A stretch of 64,000 bases of DNA, from assembly GCA_964507055.1 (NCBI GenBank), contig CAZDOJ010000002.1, positions 687-64,686 on the forward strand, in the 5' to 3' direction. The stretch comes from an uncultured Gammaproteobacteria bacterium. GTDB taxonomy: Bacteria > Patescibacteriota > Microgenomatia > Levybacterales > UBA12049. The notes beneath the pieces were generated by a model. That model was not told the origin of the DNA. It ran no database searches and was given only the letters and a program-made list of their open reading frames with translations. The position numbers and the translations under genes were made by a program. This document shows, in pieces, positions 1 to 30,492 of this stretch. Every line of letters starts with the position of its first letter. Positions within the stretch are counted from its first letter, which is position 1.

Positions 1-2424
1 TTTGGTACTACCTTTGACCGACTTGGAGCGGCAATATCTGTCCGTAATACCAATACATCCGATCAATATGTGGCTGAATACTTTGGACAAAACTCATCGT
101 ATGCAGGATTTTTGGTCGCAGCAGAAGCAAATAATGCAGTACCATTTATTCAATTTGCAGATAATGCAGGATCTTCTTGTTGTTCTGTTACTTCAGATTG
201 GACATTGACCAGTGAAAATGCACGGTTCAATTTCCGACCAGGGAACGCAGTGCAGGCTCCTATTTTCACTCTGACAAACAATGGTTCTGTTGGTATTAAT
301 GCTGTTTCACAACTTGCAACACTTGATGTTCGAGGTAATACAGGTACATCTCCAATAGCATCTTTCTCTGGAGCAACTACACATGCAAGCTTGGTTGTTG
401 ACCAGTCAGGAACCGGAGACATATTTACAGCAAGTAAGAGTGGAGCAACGAAGTTCGTTATCAATAATGCCGGTAATGTAGGCATCGGGACTTCCCAGCC
501 TAGTGCACTGCTACATCTTGCAGGAACAAACGCTGGAGGCACAACTGGTATTAGTGCAGCTCAAGTATTGCAAATGACAGGTGGTAATGGCGGTACGGGG
601 TCAAGCGGTTCATCAGGCGGTACCGGAGGTAATGGAAGTGCGTTCACTTTTGCAGGTGGAACCGGAGGTAATGGAGGAGCTGGAACTACTGTTTTGGGCG
701 GTACTGGAGGTAATGGAAGTGCATTTAACTTTACGGGTGGAGCTGGAGGAACGGGTGGAGCCGCAACAAGTGGTTTGGCTGGAGCTGGAGGTACAGGTAG
801 TAGCTTATTCCTTACTGGAGGTAACGGTGGAGCTGGTGGAAGTGCTGGCAGTGGAGCTGGTGGGAATGGAGGAACTGGTGGCTCAATCAATCTCCAAGGA
901 GGACTTGGAGGAGTGCTTGGTACAGGAAGTGGTGGAAATGGATCTGCAGGTTCTATCGGAAGCATTAATATGCAAGTGAGTGGAGGTAATGTAGGTATTG
1001 GAACAAATGCTCCAACATCATTGCTTGACCTTAGACTTGCAGGTACCAATAAAGGTGACATGATGCAATTTGGAAATATTACGGATGGTGTATATGGTCG
1101 AATTGGAACAAGTGGCGGGACTGGTTTTCCTTTCTACATTTTTGGATCAAGTGGAGATGATTTAGCACTCGGAGCAGATAATGTAGAGAAAGTACGTATT
1201 ACCGCAACTGGTGCAGTAGGTATAGGAACCATAACACCGCTTGCAACATTGGATGTACGAGGAACATCCGGAACAACGCCAATTGCATCATTCTCAGGTA
1301 CAACAGCACGGGCTGGTTTAATCGTCGATAATAATGGAGTTGGAGACTTATTTACAGCGTCAAAGAGTGGTGCTACCAAGTTCGCTGTCTTAAATAATGG
1401 TGATGTGAGAATTGCAAATCTTACCGCTGCTGGCGGAGTTCTCTATACAAATGGTACTGGAACAATTGCTCAGACTGCTCAAGGAGCATCAGGACAATGT
1501 CTCCAATCACAAGGTGTCGGCGGTGCTCCAGTATGGGGATCTTGTGATTCAGCAAGTAGTGTCGATGCATTCACTGTCGCAAATGGACTTGTATACAATG
1601 GCAACCAAACAACAGACTTCGCATTTGGAGGTACATCATCAGCAAGTGCGAAGTTCAAGATCAGTGTCAGTGGTACACAACCAACAGCATCTGTCGCAGG
1701 ACAGACTTCAAATGCAGCAATGATTGTAGATCAGAATGGCGTTGGTGATGTCTTCACAGCATCTAAATCTGGAAAGACATTCTTTACCGTTAAGAATAAT
1801 GGTGTTATCCAAATGGGTAATAACACTGATGGAATTACATTTGATTACCTTAATGGCGGACCAAATTATGTAGGAAAAGCACGTCCAACAAAGCAAATTA
1901 TCCTTTCACCTGAATATGCTGGTGGTATCATGACCGCTTCAGGATCGGCGACAACTGATGGAGATATGACTGCTGATGCATCTGCTTCGGCATCGACATT
2001 GATTACATTAAATGGTGTTGCAAACAACTATCTCACATACTACGAATGGTCATCAGATGAAACATCATTCCAAGATTACACTGTTGGAGTTCGTGTCACA
2101 TTACCACCAGACTTCTCATCATGGGCTCCAGGAGGTTCATCAATTCAAGTCGTCTACAACACAGAATTGGGTACAAGTACTAGTAACAAGATGGATATGA
2201 TTATCTATCCATCAAGTAGCTCAACACCTACTGTCTATCGCCAAACACAAAATTCAGCTTCCAAGACTTGGACAACTATCGATGTCCCAGCGACAGATTT
2301 GAATGATGGAACACCTTGGAATGCTGCAAGTCAGTCAGCGATGTTGTACTTCAAGATGTCATCCAAAGACGGTAATCACGTCCAATTAGGTGACATTATC
2401 TTGAACTACCTCAGTAAGTTCTAG
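1..2424 (+). CDS. Gly-rich fibre-like repeat surface protein. 5' end is truncated by the window edge; the frame is open back to nt 1 and the annotated GTG at 70 is not the true start.
   Basis: Frame 1 has no stop from nt 1. A ~80-aa unit (LATLDVRG(N/T)(T/S)GT(S/T)PIASFSG(A/T)T..A.L(V/I)VD(Q/N)(S/N)G(T/V)GD(I/L)FTASKSGATKF(V/A)(I/V)(N/L)N) occurs at ~310-480 and ~1240-1410, with a shorter third copy at ~1690-1800. A long GGTGGNG/GAGG poly-Gly tract spans ~580-960. Recurrent GNVGIGT..P..LL.L motifs resemble tail-fibre / chlorovirus-glycoprotein-type repeats. Confidence 0.6.
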   Translation, partial: FGTTFDRLGAAISVRNTNTSDQYVAEYFGQNSSYAGFLVAAEANNAVPFIQFADNAGSSCCSVTSDWTLTSENARFNFRPGNAVQAPIFTLTNNGSVGINAVSQLATLDVRGNTGTSPIASFSGATTHASLVVDQSGTGDIFTASKSGATKFVINNAGNVGIGTSQPSALLHLAGTNAGGTTGISAAQVLQMTGGNGGTGSSGSSGGTGGNGSAFTFAGGTGGNGGAGTTVLGGTGGNGSAFNFTGGAGGTGGAATSGLAGAGGTGSSLFLTGGNGGAGGSAGSGAGGNGGTGGSINLQGGLGGVLGTGSGGNGSAGSIGSINMQVSGGNVGIGTNAPTSLLDLRLAGTNKGDMMQFGNITDGVYGRIGTSGGTGFPFYIFGSSGDDLALGADNVEKVRITATGAVGIGTITPLATLDVRGTSGTTPIASFSGTTARAGLIVDNNGVGDLFTASKSGATKFAVLNNGDVRIANLTAAGGVLYTNGTGTIAQTAQGASGQCLQSQGVGGAPVWGSCDSASSVDAFTVANGLVYNGNQTTDFAFGGTSSASAKFKISVSGTQPTASVAGQTSNAAMIVDQNGVGDVFTASKSGKTFFTVKNNGVIQMGNNTDGITFDYLNGGPNYVGKARPTKQIILSPEYAGGIMTASGSATTDGDMTADASASASTLITLNGVANNYLTYYEWSSDETSFQDYTVGVRVTLPPDFSSWAPGGSSIQVVYNTELGTSTSNKMDMIIYPSSSSTPTVYRQTQNSASKTWTTIDVPATDLNDGTPWNAASQSAMLYFKMSSKDGNHVQLGDIILNYLSKF

Positions 2425-2436
2425 GGGAATTGACCA

Positions 2437-5400
2437 GTGTCCAGCAGATTGGATACACTAATATTTATGTCGAAATTAACACTAACGATCACACTTTATA
2501 TCCTCAATACCATCGCATTTCGACAAGTTCCTGCGTATCATCTCACAGCAAAAAGAGCGGTAGCAATCAGACGCGGTGTCATCAGTATTCTGATTGCACT
2601 CATGGCTATAGAAAATATTATCGTTCCACTTGCTCATGCGGAACAATTGAATCCATCACCAAAAACACAAAAAGAAGCATTCAAAACATTAATAACAGAT
2701 ACAAATCTTGAAGGTGTCGATCCGTATGTCGGAGAGGGACGAGGCGTCAAATCTCTTATCCCAGCGATCACGGATTTAAGTGTTTCCAACAATTCAGCAA
2801 ATGTTGTTGTCCCGGCAAGAGTTCATAAATTGGCAAAAGAAAATTATCGACCAAATGAGGAAATAAAAGTTGTTATCGAAAATGGGTTGCATAAAGAATT
2901 CAAAACAGAACTTATCGATGCAGTTGGTGGCAAAGTCGCACTAGAAACAACTGAAACAGAAACCGGTGCTGCAAAAGTTATTACCATCAATCAGCCAAGT
3001 AGTTTTCGTCCTGGAAAATATACACTTCGAATCTCTGATGGAAAAGGTGGAGTTTCAGAGCAAGACTTCAGTTGGGGAGTACTCGCGATAAATCCAGACA
3101 AATCTATTTATTCCCCAAATGAGACTGCGGATCTTGCAATTGGTGTGTTGGATGAAGGCGGAAATATGGTTTGTGATGCACAAGTTGAATTGCAGATCAC
3201 CGATCCAAGCGGCAAGGTTACTTCACTTTCAACAGATAATGGAAAAGTCATTATTAATCCAGAATGTAAGTCACATAACTTTACCTTAAAACCCGATTAT
3301 GAGACGAACTACCACGTTGGTGGAGCCGGAAAATACAACATGAACTTGAAAGCACAAACAAAGAATGGTGAATACAGCATCTCTGATTCATTTGAAGTAC
3401 AAAATGCTGCAGCATTTGATGTCAAAAGAATTACAGCAACTCGTATTTACCCACCAAATACCTATCCCGTAACAATGGAAATCACTGCCAATCAAGATTT
3501 CGAAGGAACAGTTACTGAATCCGTGCCAGCAAGTTTCCGAATCGCAAAACCTGGTAGTCAAGTCCTCACTGAAGCACAACAGGTTGATAAGGATGTGAAT
3601 GCCTCTGATTCCGGAATCCTTGCCCCAGAACCACAATTACCAAATGCTCCTGAAGTTGCAGGTATTCAGACAACTGCTATTCTGCCATTTAATACTGTCA
3701 ATAATTTGGCTGATACAACGGGTGGAGAGCGAGCAGTCTTTGGTGTCACAATTCCAGGACTTGGTATGCCGTTTACTGGACCATTCCCAGTCACACAGGA
3801 ATTTGGAGAAAATTTGGTGCATATGGATGATGCAGGATTGTATGAAACATTTGGAATGCATGGACATGATGGCATCGATTTCGGAATGCCAATTGGCACT
3901 GCTATTCAAGCAGTCGATGGAGGGACAGTTGTCCAAGCAGGTCCTGGAGATTATGGAACCACTGTTATCGTACAGCATGCATGGGGTAAAAGTTATTACG
4001 GCCATTTGAGTGAAGTCAAAGTAAAAGTTGGGGATCAGGTCATCCGTGGAAGTGGATTGGCATTATCAGGAAACTCCGGTATCACAACTGGTCCTCATTT
4101 GCATTTCAGTGTTAAACCGGACAAGAATGATAACGACAATGGATATTATGGCAAAGTAGATCCTGCATATTATTTAGGTTTGAAACAATCAGCTGGAGTT
4201 GTTCTTGCTGCAGCTACCAAATTGCAACCAGAGACATATACAACTCCTGTTTCAACAGATATTCAAGTTCTCACCTGGAAGATTAATGTCAAAAAAGGTG
4301 ACAAGATAAAGATAGGCTACAACTACCTCGCACCAAGAATCAGTCCACAATTTTACACACTTGGTCCAGCAACATTTACTGATACAAATGGCCGTGAAGT
4401 ATTCCATGAAATTCGTAAATGGCAAATCGCATCCGATGCGTTGGAATATAAATTTAAGCGGGGATCATTCATTAAAGCAGATTGTACTGCTCCATGTAGT
4501 CAGGCTGTTAGTGGTGTTGGATTTCGAGGGAAAGCAGTTATATTTGAATGGACAAAACAAACAACAGAAGCAGCCGTTCAGGATCAGCATATGGGTGTAG
4601 GTTTTGCAACATCATCTTCCCAACAACGAGCAGTGTCATTCTGGGCGGATGATGGTGATGCGACTTCTGATACTGGAAGACTAAGATCGGATACAAAAGC
4701 GATTGTTGTCCAGACCAATGGAGGTACTATTGCTGCTCAGGCAGAGTTTGCTTCATTCGATGATGATGGTTTTACTCTCAATTGGACTACCAATAATTCG
4801 AGTGGGTATATACTTCATTACACAGTTCTGGGTGGAGCTGATGTCAGTAACGCAAAAGCAGGAACATTCACACTTACTACTGGTACAGGCTCTCTCGGTG
4901 TAACAGACCCTGGGTTCAAACCTGACTTTCTTATGGTAGCTGGAACAGCAAACGACACTGTCAATACAAATGTTGCACATGCCGCAATGAATATAGGCTA
5001 TGCAGCTGGTTCTTCTGAAGAAGGTGCGATAACTATCAACTCTGAATCAACCAGAACGACATCAGACACTTGGGGGCAACAACGCACAGACGCAACAGTT
5101 CTTCTCCTTACTCCAACGACCGGAGCACAAGATGCAATTGCCGACTTTACGAGCTTTGATACTAATGGCTTTACCTTAAACAAAAGTGATGCACCAGCTG
5201 CTAATACAGATATCTTTTATCTGGCAGTCCAAGGTGGGCAATATGATGTAGGAGCTTTGACACAACCAAGTACAGAAGGTGAATCAACTATATCAACCAA
5301 TTTCAGACCCGTTGGTGTCAGTCTTGCAAGCGAAAATGGAACCGCAAACACAGGTATCACAGCACATAGTTCTTTGTCTCTCGGTGGGGCTTCAAAAGAT

Positions 5401-8400
5401 ACTTCTAATCCATGGTGTAAGGATACGACAGGTGTTACTTGTATTGCACCAGATGGTACTTCAAGTGGTTGGTCAGAGAGAATTAAAATCTCAATAAATA
5501 ATGATGATTCTGATGAAACACTTACTGATTTCCCATTACTCGTAAAACTCAATTCCAGTAGGGTCGATTACAATAAAACACAAAATAGTGGACAGGATAT
5601 TCGTTTTGTCGACCCCGCAAATCCTAGTGTCGTTCTTTCTCATGAAATTGAAGTATGGAATGAGTCTGGAGATTCCTATGTTTGGGTAAAAATACCACAA
5701 TTACGGCCTGGAAACAATGATGTTATCTGGATGTATTACAACAATCCTTCAGCCGCAGATGGACAAGATGCAGCAAATGTTTGGAGCAATAATTACAAAG
5801 CTGTCTATCACATGGATGAACAGAGTGGCACAACCAATGCAGATTCGACAGCTAACACAAATGCTGGTTCAAAGAAATCCGCAACCGAACCAAACCCTAC
5901 AACATCTGGACCAATTGATGGGGCACAGGATTTTGATGGGACGGACGATTATGTCCGAGCAAATGATAGTAATTCATTGGACCTCGGTGCAACAGGAACG
6001 ATGAGTGTCTGGTTTAACCGAGATGGTATAGGTACATGGGATGCTTTGATTGCAAAAGGTAATGCAAATAATAGTGATATTCATAATTACGCCATGACGA
6101 TTAATACAAGTAATCAGCTTGCTGTGTATTGGGGAAATGGGTCTACTACAGAAACAATACAGACACCCACAACACTCACTAGCACTACAAATAATTACTA
6201 TGCTGCGAGTACATGGACAGGTAGTAATTACTTCCTTTATGTAAATGGAGCACAAAGCCAGACAGGAACCCAATCTATCACACCTGCCGCAAATACATCT
6301 CAATTGCGGATAGGTGAATTTGGTGGTAATGTCGACTACTTTAATGGTCTTATCGATGAAGTCAGAATTTCTTCAGTTCCTCGTTCTCAGAGTTGGATTG
6401 AAGCAGAATATTGGAGTGGTACTGATGCGATGAATACATTTAGTTCTGCTGAAAGTTATGCATCTCTTGGACAATCAATCTATCAAAGTACTCTTTGGTC
6501 AAGTGATACAGATAATCTTTCTGTTGAAGAGAATTCAAATGAGTCCACTTCAACAAATGATGTTCTAGAGTTGTTTACTAGTCCAACAGGTGTAAATCCA
6601 CCAGCAGCAGTTGCTGGTTCAGCAGAAATAACCTCATTTAATTCCAATGGGTTTAATATTAACTGGACGACAACGGATGGAACAGCACGTGAAGTTTTGT
6701 ATTGGACAGTAGGAAGTGTAACGGCATCACAAGAGGATTATCGGTGGTATAAAAATGCCAATTCGATAACGCCTGGAGTTGCTCTTGAAGATGAAAACTC
6801 TTCTACAATCATTGCTAAGAATAAGCCAACTGCTCGATTGCGTGCCAGTATGTCTGTTGGAGGAAATGGCTTGAATGCTTCATCACAAGGCTTTAAATTG
6901 CAATACGCAGCAGCAGGTGCAGAGTCGGCAGTCGGTGGTACTTCTGATTGGTGTAATGACACAACTGGTGTTACATGTATCGCTCCAGGACCACAAACAC
7001 AACAAACAGTGACTCAAACCGATTGGTGCAATGATGCGTCAGGTATTACCTGCGACACTAATTGGCAATATCGGCGTAAGATAACAATTAATAACTCAGC
7101 TTCAGGACAGACGTTAACTGATTTTCCATTACTTGTTAAGTTGGATAGTACAAGGATTGACTATTCCAAAACACAGAGTGATGGTGATGATCTCAGATTC
7201 GTTGCAGATGGTGCACCGACTGTTGTCCTCCCGCATGAAATTGAAGGAACATGGGCAAATAGTGGAACAAATTATGTTTGGGTCAAGGTCACACTAGCCT
7301 CTGGATCAACTACAGGTGCAATTTATATGTATTATGGCAATAACGGTGCTTCAAGTGGACAAGATGGCACAAATGTTTGGGATGGAAGTTATAAGGGAGT
7401 TTGGCATATGACAGAAGCTACAAGTACTGCAGGTGAAAATTACAAAGATAGTACAAGTACTAGTAATGATGGAACAGGTGGCGGCACTGGTCCTGGAGCA
7501 GGGACTGCAGGACGTAATCCAGCTCAAGCTACAGGCCAGATTGGCTATGGGCAGAGTTTTGATGGTGATAATGACGCCATCGGATTGCAAAGTAATACTC
7601 TTTATAATGCCAAAAATGCTTATACGATTGATGTTTGGATTAACCCAGACGATTGTGGAGATACCGCGACAAATGCAGCTACACTTTTTGAAAAACTTAC
7701 GGATATTTCAGAATTTTACATTTGTCGTACCAATGATAGAACATTAGCTTTATGGATTAATTCGACAGGATCCGATGCATATTCAAATACAAATGTAATT
7801 AGCTTTGGAGTATGGCAGCATATTGCAATAGTATATAACGGCTCCGGTACCGTTCAGATGTATGTAAATGGAGTTGCTGTTGGTATGACTGCTGCATCTT
7901 CAACTGAACCAACAAGTGATGGTGCAACCGCTACTGCCGTTATTGGTCAAGATGAAGCAGCAGGCGTATTAACAAGTTACAACTATGATGGACTTATGGA
8001 TGATATGCGTATCTCTGATACTGGACGTTCGGCCGATTGGTTGGAAGCAGAATATTTGACTGGAACTGATGCTATGAATTCATTTGGATCAGAGCAGACA
8101 TATCAAACGACAACTTCCACAAATGGGGGATGGGATATGCGAAAGAAGATTACTTTTAATAACGCAGATTCCACAGATAATCTTGCCAATTTCCCAGTTT
8201 TAATCAAGCTAGATTCTTCAAGAATCGATTACTCAAAGACGCAAAGTGCTGGACAAGATATCCGCTTTGTTGATCCATCCGATCCAACAACAGTTCTCCC
8301 ACATCAAATTGAAACTTGGAACGAAAGTGGGGCTTCGTATGTTTGGGTGAAAGTTCCACAGATCGATTCTGGTTCGGCTTCTGATTATATCTGGATGTAT

Positions 8401-10563
8401 TATGATAACCCGACAGTTTCGGATGGACAGGATGCAACCAATGTCTGGGATAGTAACTTCAAGATGGTCCAACATCTTAATCAAAATCCTGCAACAACTT
8501 GTGCAAGCACCTATGAATTCTGTGATTCGACCTCAAATGCAAACAATGGAGATAACAGTTCTAGTATGCCTTCAGGAGATCAAGTTGCCGGCAAAATTGG
8601 TGGTTCATTAAATATGGATAATGATTTTATAACAGTTCCAGATTCTGTTTCCCTAGACACACTCTCCGCAAATATGACTGTTTCTGTTTGGGTGAATGCA
8701 CAGGAGCTTGATGCAGTATACAGAAGAATCATTCAACGAAATCCACATCCAGCACAGCAGTGGTATATGGAAAGTGATGGTGGAGTGCCTGGTGCGATAT
8801 TGTGGGATAGTGGAAATAATAGTGGAAGTACGGCCGTGCTTACTACAAATAAGTGGTATTACCTTACCATGGTAACAACACCTACCTCAGGATCGTTTTA
8901 TATAAATGGAGTATTGGATGAAGCCCTTAGTGGCACAGGGGCTATTGGAACAACAGGTGATATTCATATCGGTGCATCAGATGATGGGAACTCAGATTGG
9001 CAAGGACGTATTGATGAAGTTCGCTTGAGTAGCTCTGCAAGGTCTGTTTCATGGATAAAAGCTTCTTACTTGAGTGAGAATGATTCTTTTGCCTCTTTTG
9101 GAGATGAATCACCGTATACTACTGGAGGTCAAGTAAGTTCTGGATGGACGGATGTTGCGGATATATGGTGTAACGATGCAAGTGGTGTAACGTGTAATAC
9201 AAGCTGGAGTACAAGAAAGAGGGTTACTATCAATAATCAAGCTTCTAGTACGAATTTAACCAATTTCCCTGTACTTATTAAATTAGATTCAACAAGAATC
9301 GACTACAGCAAAACACAAAACAGTGGCCAAGATATCCGCTTTGTTGATCCATCCGATCCTACAACTGCACTTCCTCATCAAATTGAAACTTGGGATGAGA
9401 ACGGCACATCATATGTTTGGGTGAAAGTTCCGCAACTTGATGGTAAATCAGCTTCTGATTCGATATGGATGTATTACGGAAATGCGTCAACGAGTGATGG
9501 TCAAGCATCTTCAAGTGTTTGGGATAGTAATTTCCGTATGGTGCAACATCTCAATCAAAATCCAGGTGGATCTGCTCCACAAATGACAGACAGTACTTCA
9601 GTTGGCCAGAATGGAACATCAAATGGAAGTATGACTTCCTCCAATCAAATAACAGGACAAATTGATGGAGCCTTAAGTTTTGATGGTATCAATGACAATA
9701 TCGATTTTGGTAATGTTACCTCCCTTGTGAGTGCGACCAATTTCACAATTTCAGCCTGGATGAAACGCCCCACAACTGCATCAGGTGGATGGGTAATTAA
9801 ATGTGACAACAGTTTTGCGAACTGTGTCGGGCTTGAATATAGCAGTACAGAAGTTAATTTTTTTGTTTCTCCAACTGGGTCCACGGCATATGGGACAATT
9901 GCTTTTACGGATACCAATTGGCATCTCTTAACGCTGCAATATGATGGCTCGCAGACAGGCAATGCAAATCGTTTGAAAGGATATATCGATGGTGTTCCTC
10001 AAACATTAAGCTTTACAGGAACTGTCCCATCATCTTCAACATCAAATACAAGTGCACTTAAGTTGGATCAGCAAGCTACGGCTTATTGGAATTCATCAAT
10101 TGATGAAGTGAGAGTTTCTAATACTACACGAACTTCAGATTGGATTAAGACTGATTATCTTTCACAATCAGATCAAATAAATACCTTTGGCAATGAGGAA
10201 ACACAGACATCGGCTGTCTGGAAGTTTAAAGATAATGCTTCAGTATCGGATGGCACTACGATCACATCAGCTGTTCTTGGAACTTCGACAAGTGGAAACC
10301 AAATGACCTATCAAGAATCAAATCCTTCATCGCTTATTCCGACAGCTTTGGCTGTAGGAGAGAAGCGAGAGTTTGATTTCTCACTGGATGGATCCCGTAC
10401 AAGCAACAGAAGAACGTATTATTTCAGAATCGTCAATGCTGATGGAACTCCAATGACAAACTATACTAAGTATCCGTCAATTACTGTTGGTGTGCCAAAT
10501 CAAAAATTGATGCGTAATGGGAAATGGTTTAACTATAAAAAAGAGCAAAGCGTTAGCTTCTGA
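2437..10563 (+). CDS. Giant (2708 aa) cell-surface protein: N-terminal hydrophobic anchor, M23 (LytM-type) metallopeptidase domain, then four tandem units each of a DUF2341-like domain plus a LamG/concanavalin-A-like lectin domain.
   Basis: M23 signature HDGIDFG ... GNSGITTGPHLHF at ~3780-4120. Four units begin W(S/Q/D/S)xR(K/I)x(I/V)(S/T)(I/F)NN...L(T/A)(D/N)FP(L/V)L(V/I)KL(N/D)S(S/T)R(V/I)DY(N/S)KTQ..G.D(I/L)RFVD...LPH(E/Q)IE.W...YVWVK(V/I)PQ, which is DUF2341-like. Each unit ends ...IDEVR(I/L/V)S...RS..WI(E/K)AEY, which is LamG_3-like. Confidence 0.75.
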   Translation: MSSRLDTLIFMSKLTLTITLYILNTIAFRQVPAYHLTAKRAVAIRRGVISILIALMAIENIIVPLAHAEQLNPSPKTQKEAFKTLITDTNLEGVDPYVGEGRGVKSLIPAITDLSVSNNSANVVVPARVHKLAKENYRPNEEIKVVIENGLHKEFKTELIDAVGGKVALETTETETGAAKVITINQPSSFRPGKYTLRISDGKGGVSEQDFSWGVLAINPDKSIYSPNETADLAIGVLDEGGNMVCDAQVELQITDPSGKVTSLSTDNGKVIINPECKSHNFTLKPDYETNYHVGGAGKYNMNLKAQTKNGEYSISDSFEVQNAAAFDVKRITATRIYPPNTYPVTMEITANQDFEGTVTESVPASFRIAKPGSQVLTEAQQVDKDVNASDSGILAPEPQLPNAPEVAGIQTTAILPFNTVNNLADTTGGERAVFGVTIPGLGMPFTGPFPVTQEFGENLVHMDDAGLYETFGMHGHDGIDFGMPIGTAIQAVDGGTVVQAGPGDYGTTVIVQHAWGKSYYGHLSEVKVKVGDQVIRGSGLALSGNSGITTGPHLHFSVKPDKNDNDNGYYGKVDPAYYLGLKQSAGVVLAAATKLQPETYTTPVSTDIQVLTWKINVKKGDKIKIGYNYLAPRISPQFYTLGPATFTDTNGREVFHEIRKWQIASDALEYKFKRGSFIKADCTAPCSQAVSGVGFRGKAVIFEWTKQTTEAAVQDQHMGVGFATSSSQQRAVSFWADDGDATSDTGRLRSDTKAIVVQTNGGTIAAQAEFASFDDDGFTLNWTTNNSSGYILHYTVLGGADVSNAKAGTFTLTTGTGSLGVTDPGFKPDFLMVAGTANDTVNTNVAHAAMNIGYAAGSSEEGAITINSESTRTTSDTWGQQRTDATVLLLTPTTGAQDAIADFTSFDTNGFTLNKSDAPAANTDIFYLAVQGGQYDVGALTQPSTEGESTISTNFRPVGVSLASENGTANTGITAHSSLSLGGASKDTSNPWCKDTTGVTCIAPDGTSSGWSERIKISINNDDSDETLTDFPLLVKLNSSRVDYNKTQNSGQDIRFVDPANPSVVLSHEIEVWNESGDSYVWVKIPQLRPGNNDVIWMYYNNPSAADGQDAANVWSNNYKAVYHMDEQSGTTNADSTANTNAGSKKSATEPNPTTSGPIDGAQDFDGTDDYVRANDSNSLDLGATGTMSVWFNRDGIGTWDALIAKGNANNSDIHNYAMTINTSNQLAVYWGNGSTTETIQTPTTLTSTTNNYYAASTWTGSNYFLYVNGAQSQTGTQSITPAANTSQLRIGEFGGNVDYFNGLIDEVRISSVPRSQSWIEAEYWSGTDAMNTFSSAESYASLGQSIYQSTLWSSDTDNLSVEENSNESTSTNDVLELFTSPTGVNPPAAVAGSAEITSFNSNGFNINWTTTDGTAREVLYWTVGSVTASQEDYRWYKNANSITPGVALEDENSSTIIAKNKPTARLRASMSVGGNGLNASSQGFKLQYAAAGAESAVGGTSDWCNDTTGVTCIAPGPQTQQTVTQTDWCNDASGITCDTNWQYRRKITINNSASGQTLTDFPLLVKLDSTRIDYSKTQSDGDDLRFVADGAPTVVLPHEIEGTWANSGTNYVWVKVTLASGSTTGAIYMYYGNNGASSGQDGTNVWDGSYKGVWHMTEATSTAGENYKDSTSTSNDGTGGGTGPGAGTAGRNPAQATGQIGYGQSFDGDNDAIGLQSNTLYNAKNAYTIDVWINPDDCGDTATNAATLFEKLTDISEFYICRTNDRTLALWINSTGSDAYSNTNVISFGVWQHIAIVYNGSGTVQMYVNGVAVGMTAASSTEPTSDGATATAVIGQDEAAGVLTSYNYDGLMDDMRISDTGRSADWLEAEYLTGTDAMNSFGSEQTYQTTTSTNGGWDMRKKITFNNADSTDNLANFPVLIKLDSSRIDYSKTQSAGQDIRFVDPSDPTTVLPHQIETWNESGASYVWVKVPQIDSGSASDYIWMYYDNPTVSDGQDATNVWDSNFKMVQHLNQNPATTCASTYEFCDSTSNANNGDNSSSMPSGDQVAGKIGGSLNMDNDFITVPDSVSLDTLSANMTVSVWVNAQELDAVYRRIIQRNPHPAQQWYMESDGGVPGAILWDSGNNSGSTAVLTTNKWYYLTMVTTPTSGSFYINGVLDEALSGTGAIGTTGDIHIGASDDGNSDWQGRIDEVRLSSSARSVSWIKASYLSENDSFASFGDESPYTTGGQVSSGWTDVADIWCNDASGVTCNTSWSTRKRVTINNQASSTNLTNFPVLIKLDSTRIDYSKTQNSGQDIRFVDPSDPTTALPHQIETWDENGTSYVWVKVPQLDGKSASDSIWMYYGNASTSDGQASSSVWDSNFRMVQHLNQNPGGSAPQMTDSTSVGQNGTSNGSMTSSNQITGQIDGALSFDGINDNIDFGNVTSLVSATNFTISAWMKRPTTASGGWVIKCDNSFANCVGLEYSSTEVNFFVSPTGSTAYGTIAFTDTNWHLLTLQYDGSQTGNANRLKGYIDGVPQTLSFTGTVPSSSTSNTSALKLDQQATAYWNSSIDEVRVSNTTRTSDWIKTDYLSQSDQINTFGNEETQTSAVWKFKDNASVSDGTTITSAVLGTSTSGNQMTYQESNPSSLIPTALAVGEKREFDFSLDGSRTSNRRTYYFRIVNADGTPMTNYTKYPSITVGVPNQKLMRNGKWFNYKKEQSVSF
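3780..4120 (+). other. M23 peptidase catalytic domain within the giant protein.
   Basis: HxxxD (HGHDGIDFG) and HxH (GPHLHF) zinc-ligand motifs with typical M23 spacing. Confidence 0.7.
5470..6410 (+). repeat. Intragenic repeat unit 1 (DUF2341-like plus LamG-like).
   Basis: WSERIKISINNDDSDETLTDFPLLVKLNSSRVDYNKTQNSGQDIRFVD ... IDEVRISSVPRSQSWIEAEY. Confidence 0.6.
7063..8055 (+). repeat. Intragenic repeat unit 2 (DUF2341-like plus LamG-like).
   Basis: WQYRRKITINNSASGQTLTDFPLLVKLDSTRIDYSKTQSDGDDLRFV ... MDDMRISDTGRSADWLEAEY. Confidence 0.6.
8133..9070 (+). repeat. Intragenic repeat unit 3 (DUF2341-like plus LamG-like).
   Basis: WDMRKKITFNNADSTDNLANFPVLIKLDSSRIDYSKTQSAGQDIRFVDPSDPTTVLPHQIETW ... 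IDEVRLSSSARSVSWIKASY. Confidence 0.6.
9205..10160 (+). repeat. Intragenic repeat unit 4 (DUF2341-like plus LamG-like). Near-identical at nucleotide level to unit 3 over ~80 nt (8254-8335 versus 9330-9410).
   Basis: WSTRKRVTINNQASSTNLTNFPVLIKLDSTRIDYSKTQNSGQDIRFVDPSDPTTALPHQIETW ... IDEVRVSNTTRTSDWIKTDY. The stretch caagatatccgctttgttgatccatccgatcc is shared verbatim with unit 3. Confidence 0.6.
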
Positions 10564-10574
10564 TAGGACTCGGA

Positions 10575-11138
10575 TTGCTAATAATGTATACTAAAGACAT
10601 GGCTGAAAATGTCTTTAATCCAGAACAATTAGCATATGTAGAGCCCACCAAAAAACCTCGAAAGTTCTCATTCCTAAAGCCGAATAAGAAAGCATTTGTG
10701 ATCTCTTTAATCTTTGTGTTTGGAATAGTTATGGGTGCTGGTGGAATCTTTGGGTACTTACAGTTGAAAAAAACGCCAGTTCCTGTAGAACAGTTGCAAG
10801 ACGATAAACCTCCACAAGAGGTGCTCGGTTTAATTGAGACAGTTGAAAAGAAAGTTCCGAATATTCCCAAAAATGAAATTCCTTCCGTTGCTACGGTAAA
10901 AGATCTCGCAGACTTATCTGACCAGGAATTCCTTGCAGGTGCAAAAGTAGGGGACCGAATTATGATTTATTCTGCTTCCAAGCGTGCGATTCTTTATAGA
11001 CCAAGTACGAATGAAGTCATTCGCCAAGGTCCAGTTGAGATTATTGGAGAAGAAACGGATGAAGCAGAGAAAGCTTCCTCCTCTGCTGTGCTTTCCGCCT
11101 CAGACTCCGCAGTTCCTGCTTTACGGATTAAATATTAA
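10575..11138 (+). CDS. Hypothetical single-pass membrane protein.
   Basis: ORF with one hydrophobic helix (VISLIFVFGIVMGAGGIFGYL). No recognisable family. Confidence 0.4.
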   Translation: MLIMYTKDMAENVFNPEQLAYVEPTKKPRKFSFLKPNKKAFVISLIFVFGIVMGAGGIFGYLQLKKTPVPVEQLQDDKPPQEVLGLIETVEKKVPNIPKNEIPSVATVKDLADLSDQEFLAGAKVGDRIMIYSASKRAILYRPSTNEVIRQGPVEIIGEETDEAEKASSSAVLSASDSAVPALRIKY

Positions 11139-11178: not shown

Positions 11179-11251
11179 GCCGATGTAGCTCAACGGATAG
11201 AGCAATCCCGTCCTAAGGGAGAGGTTGTGAGTTCGATTCTCACCATCGGTA
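11179..11251 (+). tRNA. tRNA-Arg (anticodon CCT).
   Basis: Cloverleaf: acceptor GCCGATG/CATCGGT, D-arm GCTC-AACGGAT-AGAGC, anticodon stem/loop with loop GTCCTAA (anticodon CCT), T-arm GTGAG-TTCGATT-CTCAC, discriminator A. CCA is not encoded. Confidence 0.8.
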
Positions 11252-11262
11252 CTCAGGCTTAT

Positions 11263-11318
11263 GAGGAGGCCACCTGCTTGACAGGGGTGGTTGGAGGTTC
11301 GATTCCTCTCGACGGTAC
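11263..11318 (+). pseudogene. tRNA-like 3' fragment (T-arm plus acceptor 3' strand) with no matching 5' half. Possible tRNA remnant or integration scar.
   Basis: GGAGG-TTCGATT-CCTCT T-arm followed by CGACGGTAC. The upstream sequence does not supply a complementary acceptor 5' strand or a D-arm. Confidence 0.3.
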
Positions 11319-11773: not shown

Positions 11774-12517
11774 ATGACACGGAATGAGGCGATCAAGTTT
11801 ATTGTACTTAGAAGTCTGGGTAATTTTTTAGTGCTATTTAGTTTGTATGGTGTTGGAGCAACTTTTGGTCCAGCACTCACAGAACAAATAAAGTATGCAG
11901 TTATTCAAATGCGTGGAATAGAGTTTACTGTCCAGGCGGACAATACTTCAGTAAGTCAACCAAGTTTCACTCAATCATCTTCAGAATCAACTCCACAAGT
12001 CCCTCAGGATTCTATCGGACGAGATCTTGGATTTGCAGATGTACTTGCAGGGAGTAAAGAGCAAGTATTGATGCCGAAAGACCCACTGTTTAGTATATTG
12101 ATACCTAAAATAGGGGCATCTTCTAAAGTCTATCCAAATATTGATCCAGAGAATCGTGATGAATTTCTTCCGGTACTCCAACATGGTGTTGCCCATGCTA
12201 AAGGAAGCGTTTTTCCGGGCTATCCAGGCAATACCTATCTCTTTGCCCATTCAGCTGACAATTGGTGGGATGTAGGGCGTTACAACGCCGTATTCTATAC
12301 ACTCAATAACCTTTCCGATAATGATGAGATAGTCATCTTCTTTGAAAATCGAAGATATGATTATGTCATAAAGCAGAAAATTGTTGCGGATCCCAATGAT
12401 GTTACTTATCTAACCAATAAGCATGAAGGGCCACATAAGTTAATCTTGCAAACATGTTGGCCTCCAGGAACAACCTGGAAACGGTTGTATATCGTAGCTG
12501 AACCGAAGGCTACTTAA
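11774..12517 (+). CDS. Sortase-family transpeptidase.
   Basis: N-terminal membrane anchor. Conserved His region YLFAHS. Catalytic Cys in LILQTCWPP (the sortase TLxTC motif), followed by the conserved Arg (WKRLYIV). Confidence 0.6.
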   Translation: MTRNEAIKFIVLRSLGNFLVLFSLYGVGATFGPALTEQIKYAVIQMRGIEFTVQADNTSVSQPSFTQSSSESTPQVPQDSIGRDLGFADVLAGSKEQVLMPKDPLFSILIPKIGASSKVYPNIDPENRDEFLPVLQHGVAHAKGSVFPGYPGNTYLFAHSADNWWDVGRYNAVFYTLNNLSDNDEIVIFFENRRYDYVIKQKIVADPNDVTYLTNKHEGPHKLILQTCWPPGTTWKRLYIVAEPKAT

Positions 12518-16087: not shown

Positions 16088-17632
16088 TTGGTAACAAGTC
16101 AAAATGGCGAGTTGTACTTTGTGGTGGGAGTAGATGATTGGGGCAATGATGCAAATGCAACAGCAGGGAGTGGTTATATGATTCAAGATCAGCAAGCAGA
16201 TGTTGATACACATGAACGATTCTATACAGAAGCAAAAGTCGCAAATTCAGGAACACACGCAACCAATTTCACCATAGGGTCTGCTTCTAAGTGGGCTGTG
16301 ATCGGAGCATCATTCAAGCCAGCAGTGATAGCAAGTGGTTCAGGAACAGCTTCAGGATCTGCAACATTTACTTATGATTTAAATGGAAATATGGCGAGTG
16401 ATGGTGCGAAGTTGTATCAGTATAACGAAGCAAATCAGCTAAAGACAGTGAAGCTCGCAAGTAACAGTGCGACTATTGCAGAATATGTCTATGATTACAA
16501 AGGTCAAAGAATGGTTAAGAAAAATTACAACAATGGCACGCTTGCAAATACAGTCATCTCATGGAGTGATAGTTTTGAAACAAAAGCGATTGTAGGTGGG
16601 GGAACTGAAACGACAAACTACTATTTTGCAAATAATGAGTTGGTAGCGAAGAAAGATAACAGTGGCAATAAAGTCTACTTCCACAATGATCATCTGGGAT
16701 CGAATTCCATAACGACCAATCAAGCTGGATCACAGGTAGAAAATGTGACATATGACCCATGGGGTAAGGTCCTGGGAGCTGCGACACAGAGTAAGTATCT
16801 GTACACAGGACAAGAATACGACGGAGAGACAGGACTCAATTATTACGATGCTCGATACTACAATGCAGACATTAGAAGGTTTACCCAGCCAGATCCTATT
16901 GTTCAAGATGTCTATGATCCACAATCGCTTAATAGATATTCTTATGCCAGAAATAATCCACTAAGATATACTGATCCGACAGGTCATGCAATCTGGGATA
17001 CAATTGTAAATTCTGTTAAGCAAGCAGTAAGTGCTGTTCAATCGTTCTTCTCACCACCAAAGGCTCCTCCTGTTTATTCATCTTTGCCAGCATCGTCAAT
17101 TCCTTATCGAGGACCAATTAATACTCCTTCAGCCGGAAGGTCAAGTGGAAGTAGTAGCTCAAGTAGTAGTAATGGTGGCGGAAGTGGCGGAAATGGTAAT
17201 TTAGGAGGAGGCTCAGGTGGCAATTCAGGGCAAGGGAGCAATTATAATGGCTCTTCTCCAGTGGTTAAGAAAATAGTAGATAAAACTTCTTTTCCTTTGA
17301 ACTTAGCAGTTTCCGCATACTATGCTTATAGCATTCGTAACGATGTGCGAAAGGAGGCTCAAAATAGACCTGGTGGAGCAGACGATGGCACAGAGGGAGA
17401 TGCTTGGCGACATGCGCGTATTATGGAAATCTTGGTTAAAGATACTGGACCTGAGAATGCATTAATGATAGGTGTAGCACATGAAGTCCAAGGATTAACT
17501 AGCAAGAATTGGACCGCACAGGATAGCTTTATGGATATGCATAACAATGTTGTGTCTGTTTATGGAGTAAGTAATGGCTTAACACCAAATCAGTTGGTCG
17601 AAAAAAATATGCTATATTACTACAAGAAATGA
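16088..17632 (+). CDS. Short RHS/YD-repeat protein: a few YD repeats, the RHS repeat-associated core, then a ~230-aa C-terminal polymorphic-toxin-like domain. It starts at TTG and looks N-terminally truncated (orphan CT cassette).
   Basis: YD repeats (FTYDLNGNM, YVYDYKGQRM, YYFANNELVAKKD). Core motif YTGQEYDGETGLNYYDARYYNADIRRFTQPDPI ... NPLRYTDPTGH. A G/S-rich linker precedes a unique C-terminal domain. A stop lies immediately upstream in frame, and no ATG start is present. Confidence 0.7.
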   Translation: MVTSQNGELYFVVGVDDWGNDANATAGSGYMIQDQQADVDTHERFYTEAKVANSGTHATNFTIGSASKWAVIGASFKPAVIASGSGTASGSATFTYDLNGNMASDGAKLYQYNEANQLKTVKLASNSATIAEYVYDYKGQRMVKKNYNNGTLANTVISWSDSFETKAIVGGGTETTNYYFANNELVAKKDNSGNKVYFHNDHLGSNSITTNQAGSQVENVTYDPWGKVLGAATQSKYLYTGQEYDGETGLNYYDARYYNADIRRFTQPDPIVQDVYDPQSLNRYSYARNNPLRYTDPTGHAIWDTIVNSVKQAVSAVQSFFSPPKAPPVYSSLPASSIPYRGPINTPSAGRSSGSSSSSSSNGGGSGGNGNLGGGSGGNSGQGSNYNGSSPVVKKIVDKTSFPLNLAVSAYYAYSIRNDVRKEAQNRPGGADDGTEGDAWRHARIMEILVKDTGPENALMIGVAHEVQGLTSKNWTAQDSFMDMHNNVVSVYGVSNGLTPNQLVEKNMLYYYKK

Positions 17633-17653: not shown

Positions 17654-18289
17654 ATGAAAAATAAAAAAGGAAGTAATTTGGTTAATGATCTAGCTTTAAA
17701 AGGATTGCTTTTAGCATTAATCATTGTATTTGGAGTGTACTTATATATAGATTTAAATTCAGTTTTGTCCCAATCTCATAACTCTTCATCTATTGTTAAA
17801 GATAATCCTAGTAATAACTCAAAATCATATCAGAATACTTCCGACGGCTTTAACTTTGAATATCCAGCGAGCTATAATTTAGACGAAAAAAAGCAGGAGG
17901 GTAATACGTTACTTGATCTTGAAAAAGATAGTAAATTAGATCAAGATGGCTATTATTTGGTAAAGGGATCTTGGATCAGGATTACTTTTAAGAAAGACTT
18001 AAAGTCATTTATTCAGTATGTTCAGGAAGAAAATAAAAGAGTAGTAGAAAAAAATGAAGCAGGAATTGAAGAAAGAAATATTAACGGAATAGAAGCTTTA
18101 GAAGTTAATTATCATAATACCTATAGCCACCCTTTAAAGATTGCGGGCATAAAAAAAGTCTATTTAAAAAATAATAATGATGTTTTAGAGTTGTCATTAC
18201 AAGTTGGAAGAGAAACTACAAAAGTTGAATATGAAACATATATAAAAGAGTTTGATTCAGTTGTTAATAGCGTAAAGTTTGGTAATTAG
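17654..18289 (+). CDS. Putative immunity protein for the upstream RHS C-terminal toxin. Membrane-anchored, 211 aa.
   Basis: The gene starts 22 nt after the RHS stop on the same strand. N-terminal TM, no known family. The call rests on position only. Confidence 0.35.
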   Translation: MKNKKGSNLVNDLALKGLLLALIIVFGVYLYIDLNSVLSQSHNSSSIVKDNPSNNSKSYQNTSDGFNFEYPASYNLDEKKQEGNTLLDLEKDSKLDQDGYYLVKGSWIRITFKKDLKSFIQYVQEENKRVVEKNEAGIEERNINGIEALEVNYHNTYSHPLKIAGIKKVYLKNNNDVLELSLQVGRETTKVEYETYIKEFDSVVNSVKFGN

Positions 18290-29076: not shown

Positions 29077-30492
29077 TTGACTCCGCACCATCGCTTCATT
29101 ACGATTAGGTTAATGGTAAATTCACACCGCTTTTTATTTTTGATTTCATTTATAGTGTTTTCTATTGTTTTTGCTTCTATAATCCCCAAAACTTATGCAG
29201 CAAATACACAATTGTCTGTTACTGTTTTTCTTCATGGGATAGGCAAAGGAGGAGATAGTGCCAATGCAAATAGTGGTGGGAATACTTCTCCCAAGAGTCA
29301 GCAAAAAGATGTATCAATTGGAGTATTTAATGCTCAGAATGTTTTAGTTTCAAGCAGCCGAGTTACAGCGACGTACTCTGCAACAGATGGTAATTATAAA
29401 GCCACGGTAGATTTAGGATCACTTGCATCAGGTTCGTACAATGTAGCAATACGCAGTGATAAGTATTTACAAAAGACTGCTGCTGGTATTCAGAACATTA
29501 CGTCAGGTAAGTCCAACACAATTGCTCCAGTTCGTTTAATAGCTGGAGATATCCTCATCGACAATATGATCAATATTCAGGATTTTAATATGCTGATGAA
29601 CTGTTATGCAGATTTAACTCCAGCAAAGGCTTGTACAACTGCCCAAAGCTCTCTGGCGGATTTAACTGATGATGGAAATGTAAATCAGTTAGATTACAAT
29701 TTATTCATTCGGGAGATAGGTAATAGAAGTGGTGAAGCAAATCCTACCAGCACTATTACATCTGCTCCAACAGTTAATCCTACAACGACAAAGTCTCCAA
29801 CTCCAAATCCATCTGGAAGTAATGCTTCTCTCCCTGCTCAAATACTAAATTTGACTAATTGGAAACTTCAGCTTCCGTCAGGTCAAGCAGAAAGTCCGAC
29901 GGAGATCAAACAGCCCGCACTTGCTACATATAAAAATGATCCATATTTTGTAACGTCAAATGGAGGTGTTCGATTTCGTGCTCCTGTTAATGGGGTAACG
30001 ACAAGTGGTTCTGATTATCCTCGTTCTGAACTCCGTGAGATGACCAGTAACGGTACAGCTCAAGCGAGTTGGTCTACTTCTTCAGGAACGCATACAATGC
30101 TTCTCGATGAGGCAATCACAGCGGTTCCTGTAACAAAGAAACATGTAGTCGCGGGGCAAATACATGATGGTGAGAATGATGTCATTGTTATTCGTTTGGA
30201 AATGCCAAAGTTGTTTATCGATATTGGGGGAACTGCTGGCCCGACACTTGATACAAATTATACTTTGGGTAAGCGATTTACAGTTAAGTTTGAGGTTACA
30301 GGTGGCAAAACAAATATTTATTACAATGGCAGTACAACTCCTACTTATACGATGGCAAATAATTATGCAAATGCATATTTTAAGGCTGGTGCATATACGC
30401 AATCTAATTGTACGAAGGAACCTTCAAATTTATGTAATGCGAATAACTTTGGTGAAGTAATTATTTACAAGACTGAAGTGGTACACAAATAG
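29077..30492 (+). CDS. Secreted polysaccharide lyase family 7 (alginate-lyase-2 fold) protein with a dockerin-like Ca-binding repeat and a Thr/Pro linker.
   Basis: PL7 blocks: NWKLQLPSG, YPRSELREM, GQIHDGEND, YFKAGAYTQSN. Dockerin-like segment DLTDDGNVNQLDYNLFI. Confidence 0.65.
   Translation: MTPHHRFITIRLMVNSHRFLFLISFIVFSIVFASIIPKTYAANTQLSVTVFLHGIGKGGDSANANSGGNTSPKSQQKDVSIGVFNAQNVLVSSSRVTATYSATDGNYKATVDLGSLASGSYNVAIRSDKYLQKTAAGIQNITSGKSNTIAPVRLIAGDILIDNMINIQDFNMLMNCYADLTPAKACTTAQSSLADLTDDGNVNQLDYNLFIREIGNRSGEANPTSTITSAPTVNPTTTKSPTPNPSGSNASLPAQILNLTNWKLQLPSGQAESPTEIKQPALATYKNDPYFVTSNGGVRFRAPVNGVTTSGSDYPRSELREMTSNGTAQASWSTSSGTHTMLLDEAITAVPVTKKHVVAGQIHDGENDVIVIRLEMPKLFIDIGGTAGPTLDTNYTLGKRFTVKFEVTGGKTNIYYNGSTTPTYTMANNYANAYFKAGAYTQSNCTKEPSNLCNANNFGEVIIYKTEVVHK

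Follow-up and report, generated by a model that had tools for sequence, protein, structure and literature searches.

A giant protein with an M23 peptidase domain and four DUF2341-LamG units in a conserved three-gene cassette of Microgenomatia

Large surface proteins bearing lectin domains are known in genomes from the candidate phyla radiation (Patescibacteria, CPR) (PMC5220378), and so are M23 peptidases (PMC9530719). The DUF2341 domain has been noted in Patescibacteria proteins of more than 4000 amino acids (aa) (PMC11809585) and, at type IV pilus loci of archaea, in large proteins that were proposed to be adhesin-like (PMC4858521). Taken alone, an M23 domain joined to lectin repeats in a large surface protein is not very surprising. 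I analysed such a giant gene at 2437..10563 of a 64,000-nt stretch of DNA (assembly GCA_964507055.1, contig CAZDOJ010000002.1, positions 687 to 64,686), hereafter called the window; the giant with its parts and its two partner genes lie on the plus strand (+). The giant is the middle gene of a conserved cassette encoding a tail-fibre-like protein, a protein with a conserved head and a conserved tail, and a small single-pass membrane protein. In the searched literature, no description was found of this family with a macroglobulin (MG)-M23 head and an MRHGKWF tail, of its fibre and membrane-protein cassette, or of its mosaic LamG payload.

Two groups of described proteins come close. Zoocin A, lysostaphin and LytM share with the giant the HxxxD and HxH motifs, the catalytic His, the fold, and the logic of a catalytic domain with a separate binding module. 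However, the giant is ten to twenty times larger, its M23 domain is inserted in an MG-like array, its binding modules are DUF2341 plus LamG rather than SH3b or the zoocin-type target-recognition domain, and it has a conserved C-terminal tail and a three-gene cassette. The other group is the DUF2341 plus LamG giants of Patescibacteria and of Asgard and other archaea. These have the same repeated units (P0010, P0030 and P0043, 27-29% identity), but lack both the MG-M23 head and the MRHGKWF tail. Of the 86 listed clusters, only 8 combine M23, DUF2341 and LamG (P0001-P0005, P0007, P0008, and P0023).

The head, the tail and the cassette

Residues are numbered from the GTG at 2437, so that the window position equals 2437 + 3 × (aa − 1). 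The open reading frame (ORF) has 2708 codons and runs uninterrupted to the stop codon at 10561-10563, just as the preliminary description of the window, made from the letters alone, had read it. The true start is probably the ATG at 2467, which gives a product of 2698 aa. This form is matched identically by P0001, a protein on a 119-kb contig in NCBI-derived data, which is annotated in public data as an unnamed hypothetical protein. There are two full-length orthologues, P0002 at 62% identity and P0003 at 50%; P0002 comes from OZ246394.1, a single 1.61-Mb chromosome record, and P0003 comes from an independent Logan assembly. The giant gene is real and conserved. With 2,708 aa it is among the longest of its family, whose typical members have about 900-1,300 aa.

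The product begins with a long N-terminus resembling a signal peptide (2467..2640, aa 11-68), as read from the sequence, with a basic n-region, the hydrophobic stretch GVISILIALMAIENIIVPL, and AHA before EQ; I infer cleavage between AHA and EQ. The 18 Cys residues of the giant fall into nine local pairs. Because of this N-terminus and these Cys pairs, the giant is predicted to be extracytoplasmic, which agrees with the surface location first proposed for it.

The first part of the head consists of three MG/Ig-like beta-sandwich domains (2773..3756, aa 113-440), assigned by Pfam MG2, an AF2 model, and Foldseek. This region contains the motif WGVLAIN (aa 213) and a Cys246-Cys277 pair, and it is 87-92% identical to that of P0002. 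The Pfam MG2 match (aa 221-266) scored 27.6 bits in the whole protein, below the cutoff of 32.8, and 37.6 bits on the head fragment. The AF2 model of aa 113-673 has a mean pLDDT of 74, with values of mostly 80-97 in the sandwich domains and higher values also in the M23 domain. With this head model, Foldseek matched the MG arrays of complement C3, alpha-2-macroglobulin (A2M), and TEP1. The likeness to A2M and C3 lies in these MG domains, by Pfam MG2 and by fold, whereas the thioester domain, the bait region, and CUB are absent from the giant, so that only the generic MG fold is common. A protease inhibitor of the A2M family was ruled out, as Pfam gave no A2M, thioester or receptor-binding domain match anywhere in the giant.

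The Peptidase_M23 catalytic domain follows at 3862..4206 (aa 476-590). For its Pfam match (PF01551, aa 476-564; cutoff 28.7), the score was 82.1 bits in the full-length protein and 86.7 bits when the fragment was scanned. An NCBIfam search of the giant recognised the M23 domain alone, far under every equivalog cutoff. The zinc ligands (HxxxD and the second His of HxH) and the two catalytic His are all present, in the form of H477xxxD481, H523, and H554xH556. These five residues are invariant across 19 homologues and align to those of zoocin A and StM23. PDB sequence matches for the domain were zoocin A (1e-18, the best), StM23, ShyA, lysostaphin, and LytM, while Foldseek with the head model found the lysostaphin catalytic domain 4qpb (TMt 0.79, rmsd 3.1 Å, 29% identity) as well as EnpA and DipM. 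Since the zinc-binding and catalytic residues are present and invariant in the homologues, the domain looks active rather than degenerate. Thus, the peptidase named in the preliminary description is upheld by score, residues and fold. Its placement near the N-terminus was only loosely right, because beta-sandwich domains of about 400 aa come first and the peptidase sits at 18-21% of the length.

The head ends with a closing beta domain (4234..4452, aa 600-672; VLTWKINVKKGD...SPQFYTLGP...RKWQIASDA), with WQIASD at aa 662. This domain is 92% identical to that of P0002 and is kept in every head-bearing homologue, including those without M23.

At the other end of the giant, a conserved C-terminal beta domain (10204..10476, aa 2590-2680) is 91% identical to that of P0002; phmmer found this domain at internal positions in other Patescibacteria giants (P0015, P0047, P0051, and P0065). 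The last 28 residues form the tail motif KLMRNGKWFNYKKEQSVSF (10477..10560, aa 2681-2708). The family consensus of the motif is PTLxQLMRHGKWFxSxGxxQPFTF, ending at the C-terminal carboxyl group, and the window protein has LMRNGKWF at aa 2691-2698 of 2708. A tail profile of 41 positions matched 377 representatives among 1.84 billion at E <= 1e-3. In 106 of 132 new profile matches the motif begins 16-17 residues from the C-terminus, and 72 of 91 such tail proteins of at least 700 aa have the closing motif of the head. All nine mid-size tail proteins tested have M23 at about residues 400-500. Most relatives share with the window protein only the first ~670 and the last ~25 residues, and the payload elsewhere in the family is variable.

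The common order of the N-terminal head is WGVLAxN, TRIYP, M23, and WQIAxD. The family with an MG-M23 head and an MRHGKWF tail was defined in this analysis and is not a curated one; the window protein belongs to it, with WGVLAIN, M23, WQIASD, and the C-terminal LMRNGKWF. There are deviations, as the head occurs without M23 in P0025, P0029, and P0036, and M23 is placed before the head in P0027 and P0041. Some genomes have paralogous head-tail genes, namely three in the Levyibacteriota metagenome-assembled genome (MAG) MAG_784 and two in OZ246394.1.

The tail motif lacks a hydrophobic anchor and looks like a hitherto undescribed signal (sorting, docking or donor strand) of the surface proteins of Microgenomatia. 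LPxT[GAS] is absent from the giant ORF and the C-terminus is hydrophilic (...KKEQSVSF). For lack of an LPXTG motif, the giant was ruled out as a sortase substrate, although a sortase gene lies at 11774-12517, 1.2 kb downstream.

I next describe the partner genes. The 3′ part of the upstream gene, whose start is beyond the window edge, occupies 1..2424 and encodes a Gly-rich, tail-fibre-like giant with a conserved C-terminal domain; its PHROG tail fiber match is weak (1e-5). The third gene is ORF187 (10575..11138), which encodes a small single-pass membrane protein. The gaps are short, with 12 nt from the upstream stop to GTG 2437 and 11 nt from the stop of the giant to ORF187. Is this arrangement common in relatives? 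In a tBLASTn comparison with 80 related loci, homologues of the upstream C-terminal domain end just 5′ of 34 of 45 tail-bearing genes versus 2 of 17 without the tail (Fisher p = 7e-6), and ORF187 homologues lie at most 6 kb downstream of 26 of 46 tail-bearing genes versus 2 of 17 without it (p = 0.0016), both tests ignoring the phylogenetic relatedness of the loci. The cassette was seen at L001, L025, L046/L081, L069, L072, and other loci, and L069 and L072 have the tail and both partner genes and no M23. Thus, the association follows the tail, not M23.

The variable middle and the age of its units

Between the head and the C-terminal domain, the giant is made of repeats. Two copies of a beta-rich repeat of about 155 aa, X1 and X2 (4453..5406, aa 673-990), carry the motif SFDxxGFTLN. 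No match for X1/X2 was found in Pfam, PDB sequences or PHROGs. AF2 modelled the X repeats confidently as all-beta, and Foldseek gave no fold assignment for them, the matches of the multi-domain model being dominated by the LamG domain. Besides the window protein, the X1/X2 repeat is present solely in P0002-P0005. Unit 1 (5407..6456, aa 991-1340) follows, with a WCxDxxGxTC motif, DUF2341 at 5590-5838, and LamG at 5935-6399. Behind it lies a third X copy, X3 (6457..6756, aa 1341-1440), which in the window protein and the orthologues is matched by a phmmer query with X1X2 (i-E-values of 3e-4 to 2e-6). Since X3 directly follows X2 in P0004 and P0005, where X1-X3 are contiguous, unit 1 is an insertion into the X array.

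The segment at 6757..7062 comprises a small 'QEDYRWYKN' beta domain (aa 1441-1502) and two WCNDxxGxTC motifs (aa 1503-1542), with low AF2 confidence. Units 2-4 then span aa 1543-2589. By Pfam, unit 2 (7063..8100) has DUF2341 at 7180-7380 and LamG at 7561-8037, unit 3 (8131..9114) has them at 8251-8451 and 8620-9057, and unit 4 (9205..10203), which a fourth WCNDxxGxTC motif precedes, at 9325-9519 and 9685-10146. When each unit was scanned alone, DUF2341 (PF10102) scored 41.5-52.7 bits (cutoff 23.4) and Laminin_G_3 (PF13385) scored 47.1-79.6 bits (cutoff 27.6). All four units read from the letters in the preliminary description are therefore genuine by the Pfam gathering scores. A Nudix_hydro match (Pfam, aa 2304-2333, E = 1e-6) was ignored, since it falls within the DUF2341 of unit 4 and no stretch passes when scanned alone. 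The disulfide-type motif WCxDxxGxTC was seen four times, at aa 993, 1505, 1530, and 2244 (nt ~5413, 6949, 7024, and 9166), each time just before a DUF2341 or a linker.

In the AF2 model of aa 673-1560 (mean pLDDT 77), unit 1 mostly reached 85-97 and formed a confident DUF2341 sandwich and a LamG jelly roll. The fold neighbours of this LamG by Foldseek were AbnA domain 4 (TMt 0.73), CBM40 (0.70-0.72), lectin domains of trans-sialidases, neurexin LNS, and laminin LG. Structural or adhesin proteins of phages with LamG also matched the model.

The giant has evolved unevenly. Identity to P0002 is 87-97% in the head and about 90% in the C-terminal domain and tail, while it is 58-81% in the DUF2341 halves and 29-54% in the LamG halves. 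The neighbouring genes are 76-96% identical to those of the P0002 locus (MreB 96%, PEGA 95%, and sortase 85%). The DUF2341 halves of units 2-4 track the species relationship. The best database matches of the LamG halves are P0004 for units 1 and 4 and P0003 for unit 3; only that of unit 2 is P0002. The LamG modules therefore appear to be either diverging very fast or exchanged as a mosaic. Since they are low in identity and mosaic while the head and tail are about 90% conserved, the pattern suggests that they are specificity determinants. A conserved anchor with swapped variable binding tips is also the concept of the Bdellovibrio mosaic adhesive trimer (MAT) fibres in prey recognition. However, the giant itself has no similarity to these, and the one match, a weak NCBIfam Bdello_MAT_N match below cutoff (E = 6e-4, 19.6 bits versus 60), is in the fibre gene neighbouring the family member of another genome.

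The preliminary description had also reported about 80 nt of almost identical DNA in units 3 and 4 and had read it as a recent duplication with potential for repeat-number variation. This was overstated. The segment 8254..8335 is identical to its partner at 68 of 82 nt (83%), and its longest stretch without a mismatch covers 32 nt (8254-8285). The partner in register is 9328-9409 (offset 1074), rather than 9330-9410 as had been given. The DNA of the two units is 72% identical across 300 nt and falls to the background of about 25% through the LamG halves, and the four units are 35-46% identical to each other as protein. Among the codons for identical residues in the DUF2341 core, the same codon is used in 56% for units 3 and 4 and in 46-62% for cross-species and cross-unit pairs. 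As codon identity within the gene is no higher than between species, neither a recent duplication nor gene conversion is accepted as the origin of the likeness of units 3 and 4. Rather, the likeness of their DNA appears to be the product of purifying selection on a conserved protein segment.

Repeat number tells the same story. P0002 and P0003 retain the four units in unchanged order, with the units conserved by position at 62% and 50% identity, so the expected variation in number was not seen there. The more distant P0004 has two units and P0005 has one; thus, the number has changed only over long evolutionary distances. The four units are ancient, and the variable part is the LamG modules, not the repeat number. 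That the four units are a mis-assembly or a very recent duplication has next to no probability. The impression of near-identity and the real 32-nt perfect repeat are all that speak for it. On the other side are the low identity of the units as protein and DNA, their synonymous sites, and the same order of four units in the 1.61-Mb record of P0002 and in the independent Logan assembly, by which an assembly artefact was ruled out. Collapse or expansion in assembly is also implausible because no perfect repeat exceeds 32 nt.

Source lineage and neighbouring genes

A profile of the N-terminal module matched 374 stretches in a search among GTDB species representatives. The matches with informative titles are nearly all from Microgenomates-group Patescibacteria (Levy-, Ames-, Gottesman-, Roizman-, Shapiro-, and Woesebacteria), with a few in Morani- and Saccharibacteria. 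The nearest titled relative is a Levyibacteriota MAG, at 67%. By these relatives the organism is a Levybacteria-like Patescibacterium of the Microgenomatia, and the small-genome lineage supposed at first sight is borne out. The title 'uncultured Gammaproteobacteria bacterium' heads many records that carry this Patescibacteria-specific family (loci L003, L005, L006, L015, and others; OZ246394.1). Such titles appear to be placeholder taxonomy and not to be trusted.

The sortase, PEGA, and MreB neighbours of the cassette are conserved in close relatives only, and genes for wall synthesis and glycosyltransferases (MreB, WecG, and GT4) lie near the giant. Directly upstream in OZ246394.1 there is another cassette of smaller size (597, 1041, and 175 aa). 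Provided that the 3 kb separating the two fetched loci do not interrupt it, the fibre gene of the main cassette (L025 13906-21767 and L001 1-9958) would encode about 6,950 aa. This gene opens with a MerR/HTH_17-type helix-turn-helix and a membrane helix. HTH_17 was also seen in the giants P0071 and P0078; a cytoplasmic DNA-binding domain on a surface fibre is odd. A prophage or tailocin origin found no support, as the PHROG matches were generic M23, LamG, and one weak tail-fibre match.

Several other genes of the window were noted. Behind ORF187, ARAGORN called two tRNA genes that overlap, tRNA-Arg(CCT) at 11179-11252 and tRNA-Gln(TTG) at 11242-11318; of these, the tRNA-Arg alone is confirmed by Rfam, and the tRNA-Gln may be a false call. 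A protein of 514 aa with an RHS repeat and a DUF6973 match (16088-17632) is followed by a PsbP_2-like protein (17654-18289), and the two may be a polymorphic toxin and its partner. Polysaccharide-degrading enzymes are encoded at 29077-30492 (PL7 alginate lyase domain), 38202-40205 (-) (GH10 xylanase, 667 aa), and 41402-43846 (-) (beta-helix plus GH16 protein). They stand beside several GT4 glycosyltransferase genes and are relevant to possible ligands of LamG.

In some relatives, the cassette adjoins genes of a suggestive kind. Immediately upstream of the fibre gene at L081 (3094-9998), L069 (2874-9791), L072, L031, L042, and L027 lie genes whose products are two secreted Ig/fn3-like proteins and two proteins that have a signal peptide together with a transmembrane segment (TM) at the C-terminus. 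Such an architecture is shown by the Pam pilins and the membrane-anchored PamC/PamD chaperones of the CPR Pam pilus (preprint, 2026; 10.64898/2026.03.03.709456). The preprint gives the range of Pam as Saccharimonadia and Microgenomatia and reports a co-localised 'tail fibre-like protein', and it mentions no M23 protein (10.64898/2026.03.03.709456). Thus, the two systems are alike in taxonomic range, in the architecture of these upstream genes of related loci, and in a tail-fibre-like partner, whereas a pilin-like C-terminal domain and a recognised donor strand are both absent from the giant. PDB sequence searches with the upstream proteins of the relatives were empty. The Pam-pilus link, drawn from gene order and architecture, is a lead and not a finding.

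A different ending was observed in other giants with MG heads (L054, L067, L077, and L074; P0029 and P0038-P0042). They mostly lack M23, although the ORF of L077 has M23 motifs, and they terminate in '...TTIIYTITPQY'. These ends resemble the C-termini of the small pilin-like proteins of L081, and the giants adjoin chaperone-like genes with signal and TM. They may be giant pilus subunits or tip adhesins. An analogy with the WxL/WxLIP loci of Firmicutes was not supported; the head fragment matched WxLIP_HBD at E = 0.0054 and 17.1 bits versus a cutoff of 28.9, and no Pfam WxL or DUF916 match was found in the neighbouring proteins of L081.

Possible functions of the giant

What does the giant do? 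The reading I favour, tentatively and at a little under an even chance, is a secreted surface adhesin-hydrolase that binds a target glycan, cuts peptidoglycan cross-links, and docks via its head and tail, with a host or prey wall as the most likely target. The LamG modules would bind glycans on the target surface, and the M23 domain would then cleave peptide cross-links of the peptidoglycan at the bound site. Docking to the cassette partners (the fibre, the small membrane protein, or both) would be the task of the conserved head and tail, and a neighbouring pilus-like apparatus might be connected to the cassette. The hypervariability of the binding modules and the multi-copy nature of the family are the reasons for proposing a host or prey wall as the substrate. 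The preliminary description had likewise proposed a role in host attachment or in remodelling of the host cell wall. Binding combined with wall cutting is indeed plausible from the complete M23 residues, the relatives zoocin A, lysostaphin, and LytM, and the match of the LamG fold to carbohydrate-binding modules.

Several points weigh against this reading. A lytic enzyme dedicated to the wall of the cell itself is part of many secretion and pilus systems. The minimal family members (~900-1100 aa) have M23 and no lectin arrays, so that a housekeeping role on the own wall fits equally well. Since MG heads without M23 exist, including those of L069 and L072, M23 is not essential to the cassette. 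The neglect of relatedness in the cassette tests counts here as well. As for the pilus, the window, whose edge cuts off the upstream gene, shows no pilus genes, no pam-like gene is seen there or in L001/L025, and the sole Pam match at the loci of relatives, CPR_pilus_PamT of NCBIfam, reached 23-25 bits versus a cutoff of 240. Finally, the LamG modules could bind environmental polysaccharide and not a host, as the window encodes secreted PL7, GH10, and GH16 enzymes.

The main rival is a self-directed autolysin, in which M23 opens the thick peptidoglycan of the cell itself for assembly of a fibre or pilus-like appendage and the lectins hold the enzyme on the own wall polysaccharide. It is a serious candidate although on the unlikely side. 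The MG head with M23 is the constant part of the ~900-1100-aa members that have no lectin payload, the gene lies between the fibre and membrane-protein genes, after pilus-like genes in relatives, and the MreB, WecG, and GT4 genes are nearby. However, if the LamG modules bound a conserved polymer of the cell itself, one would not expect them to be the mosaic part of the giant that diverges fastest; the cassette also occurs with the M23-less heads of L069 and L072, and the multiple paralogues of MAG_784 and OZ246394.1 look more like a diversified repertoire. Less likely, and in fact improbable, is a diffusible or surface lysin resembling a bacteriocin, which would kill competitors or release nutrients without stable attachment, the cassette having no structural role. 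In zoocin A and lysostaphin a catalytic domain is paired with a wall-targeting domain, these two and LytM are the closest solved relatives of the M23 domain, and variable targeting modules would suit an arms race. Such a lysin does not fit with the conserved head and tail or with the tight coupling to the fibre and membrane-protein genes, at gaps of 11-12 nt. No immunity gene is recognisable, and I know of no bacteriocin that resembles the giant in its size of 2,700 aa. Also ranking low, and perhaps a shade more doubtful, is a scaffold for environmental polysaccharide, where the DUF2341 and LamG array would hold the cell on polymers of plants, algae or biofilms that its secreted glycanases degrade, and M23 would be secondary. 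The PL7, GH10, and GH16 proteins encoded in the window agree with it, and so do AbnA domain 4 and CBM40 among the LamG fold neighbours. Yet it leaves the intact, highly conserved M23 head and the cassette unexplained, and the glycanase genes are 18-33 kb away, outside the conserved neighbourhood.

A broader reading concerns the cassette as a whole. The fibre-like protein, the MG-M23...MRHGKWF protein, and the small membrane protein might together be an undescribed surface apparatus found across the Microgenomatia, as the working end of, or a partner to, a Pam-type pilus. I regard this as unlikely but worth stating. The invariant tail would be a docking element or donor strand that fixes the giant to a cassette partner. 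The exchangeable middle would set specificity, with lectin arrays here and beta-propellers, FG-GAP, and other repeats elsewhere. The giant of the window would then be a lectin-armed version made to find and breach a host cell wall.

To my knowledge, how Patescibacteria recognise and exploit their partners is largely unknown beyond a few cultured Saccharibacteria, and the hosts of Microgenomatia are unknown. The locus offers testable pieces for this question, namely a peptidoglycan endopeptidase that looks active and has a fixed place in a conserved head, and hypervariable LamG modules as apparent specificity determinants. The tail signature and the two partner genes can be used to find the family, with its hundreds of members, in metagenomes. 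Should the LamG modules track the wall glycans of the hosts, they could be of help in predicting the host range from sequence. Should the tail be a docking signal, it would represent a new route of surface display in bacteria that have no outer membrane.

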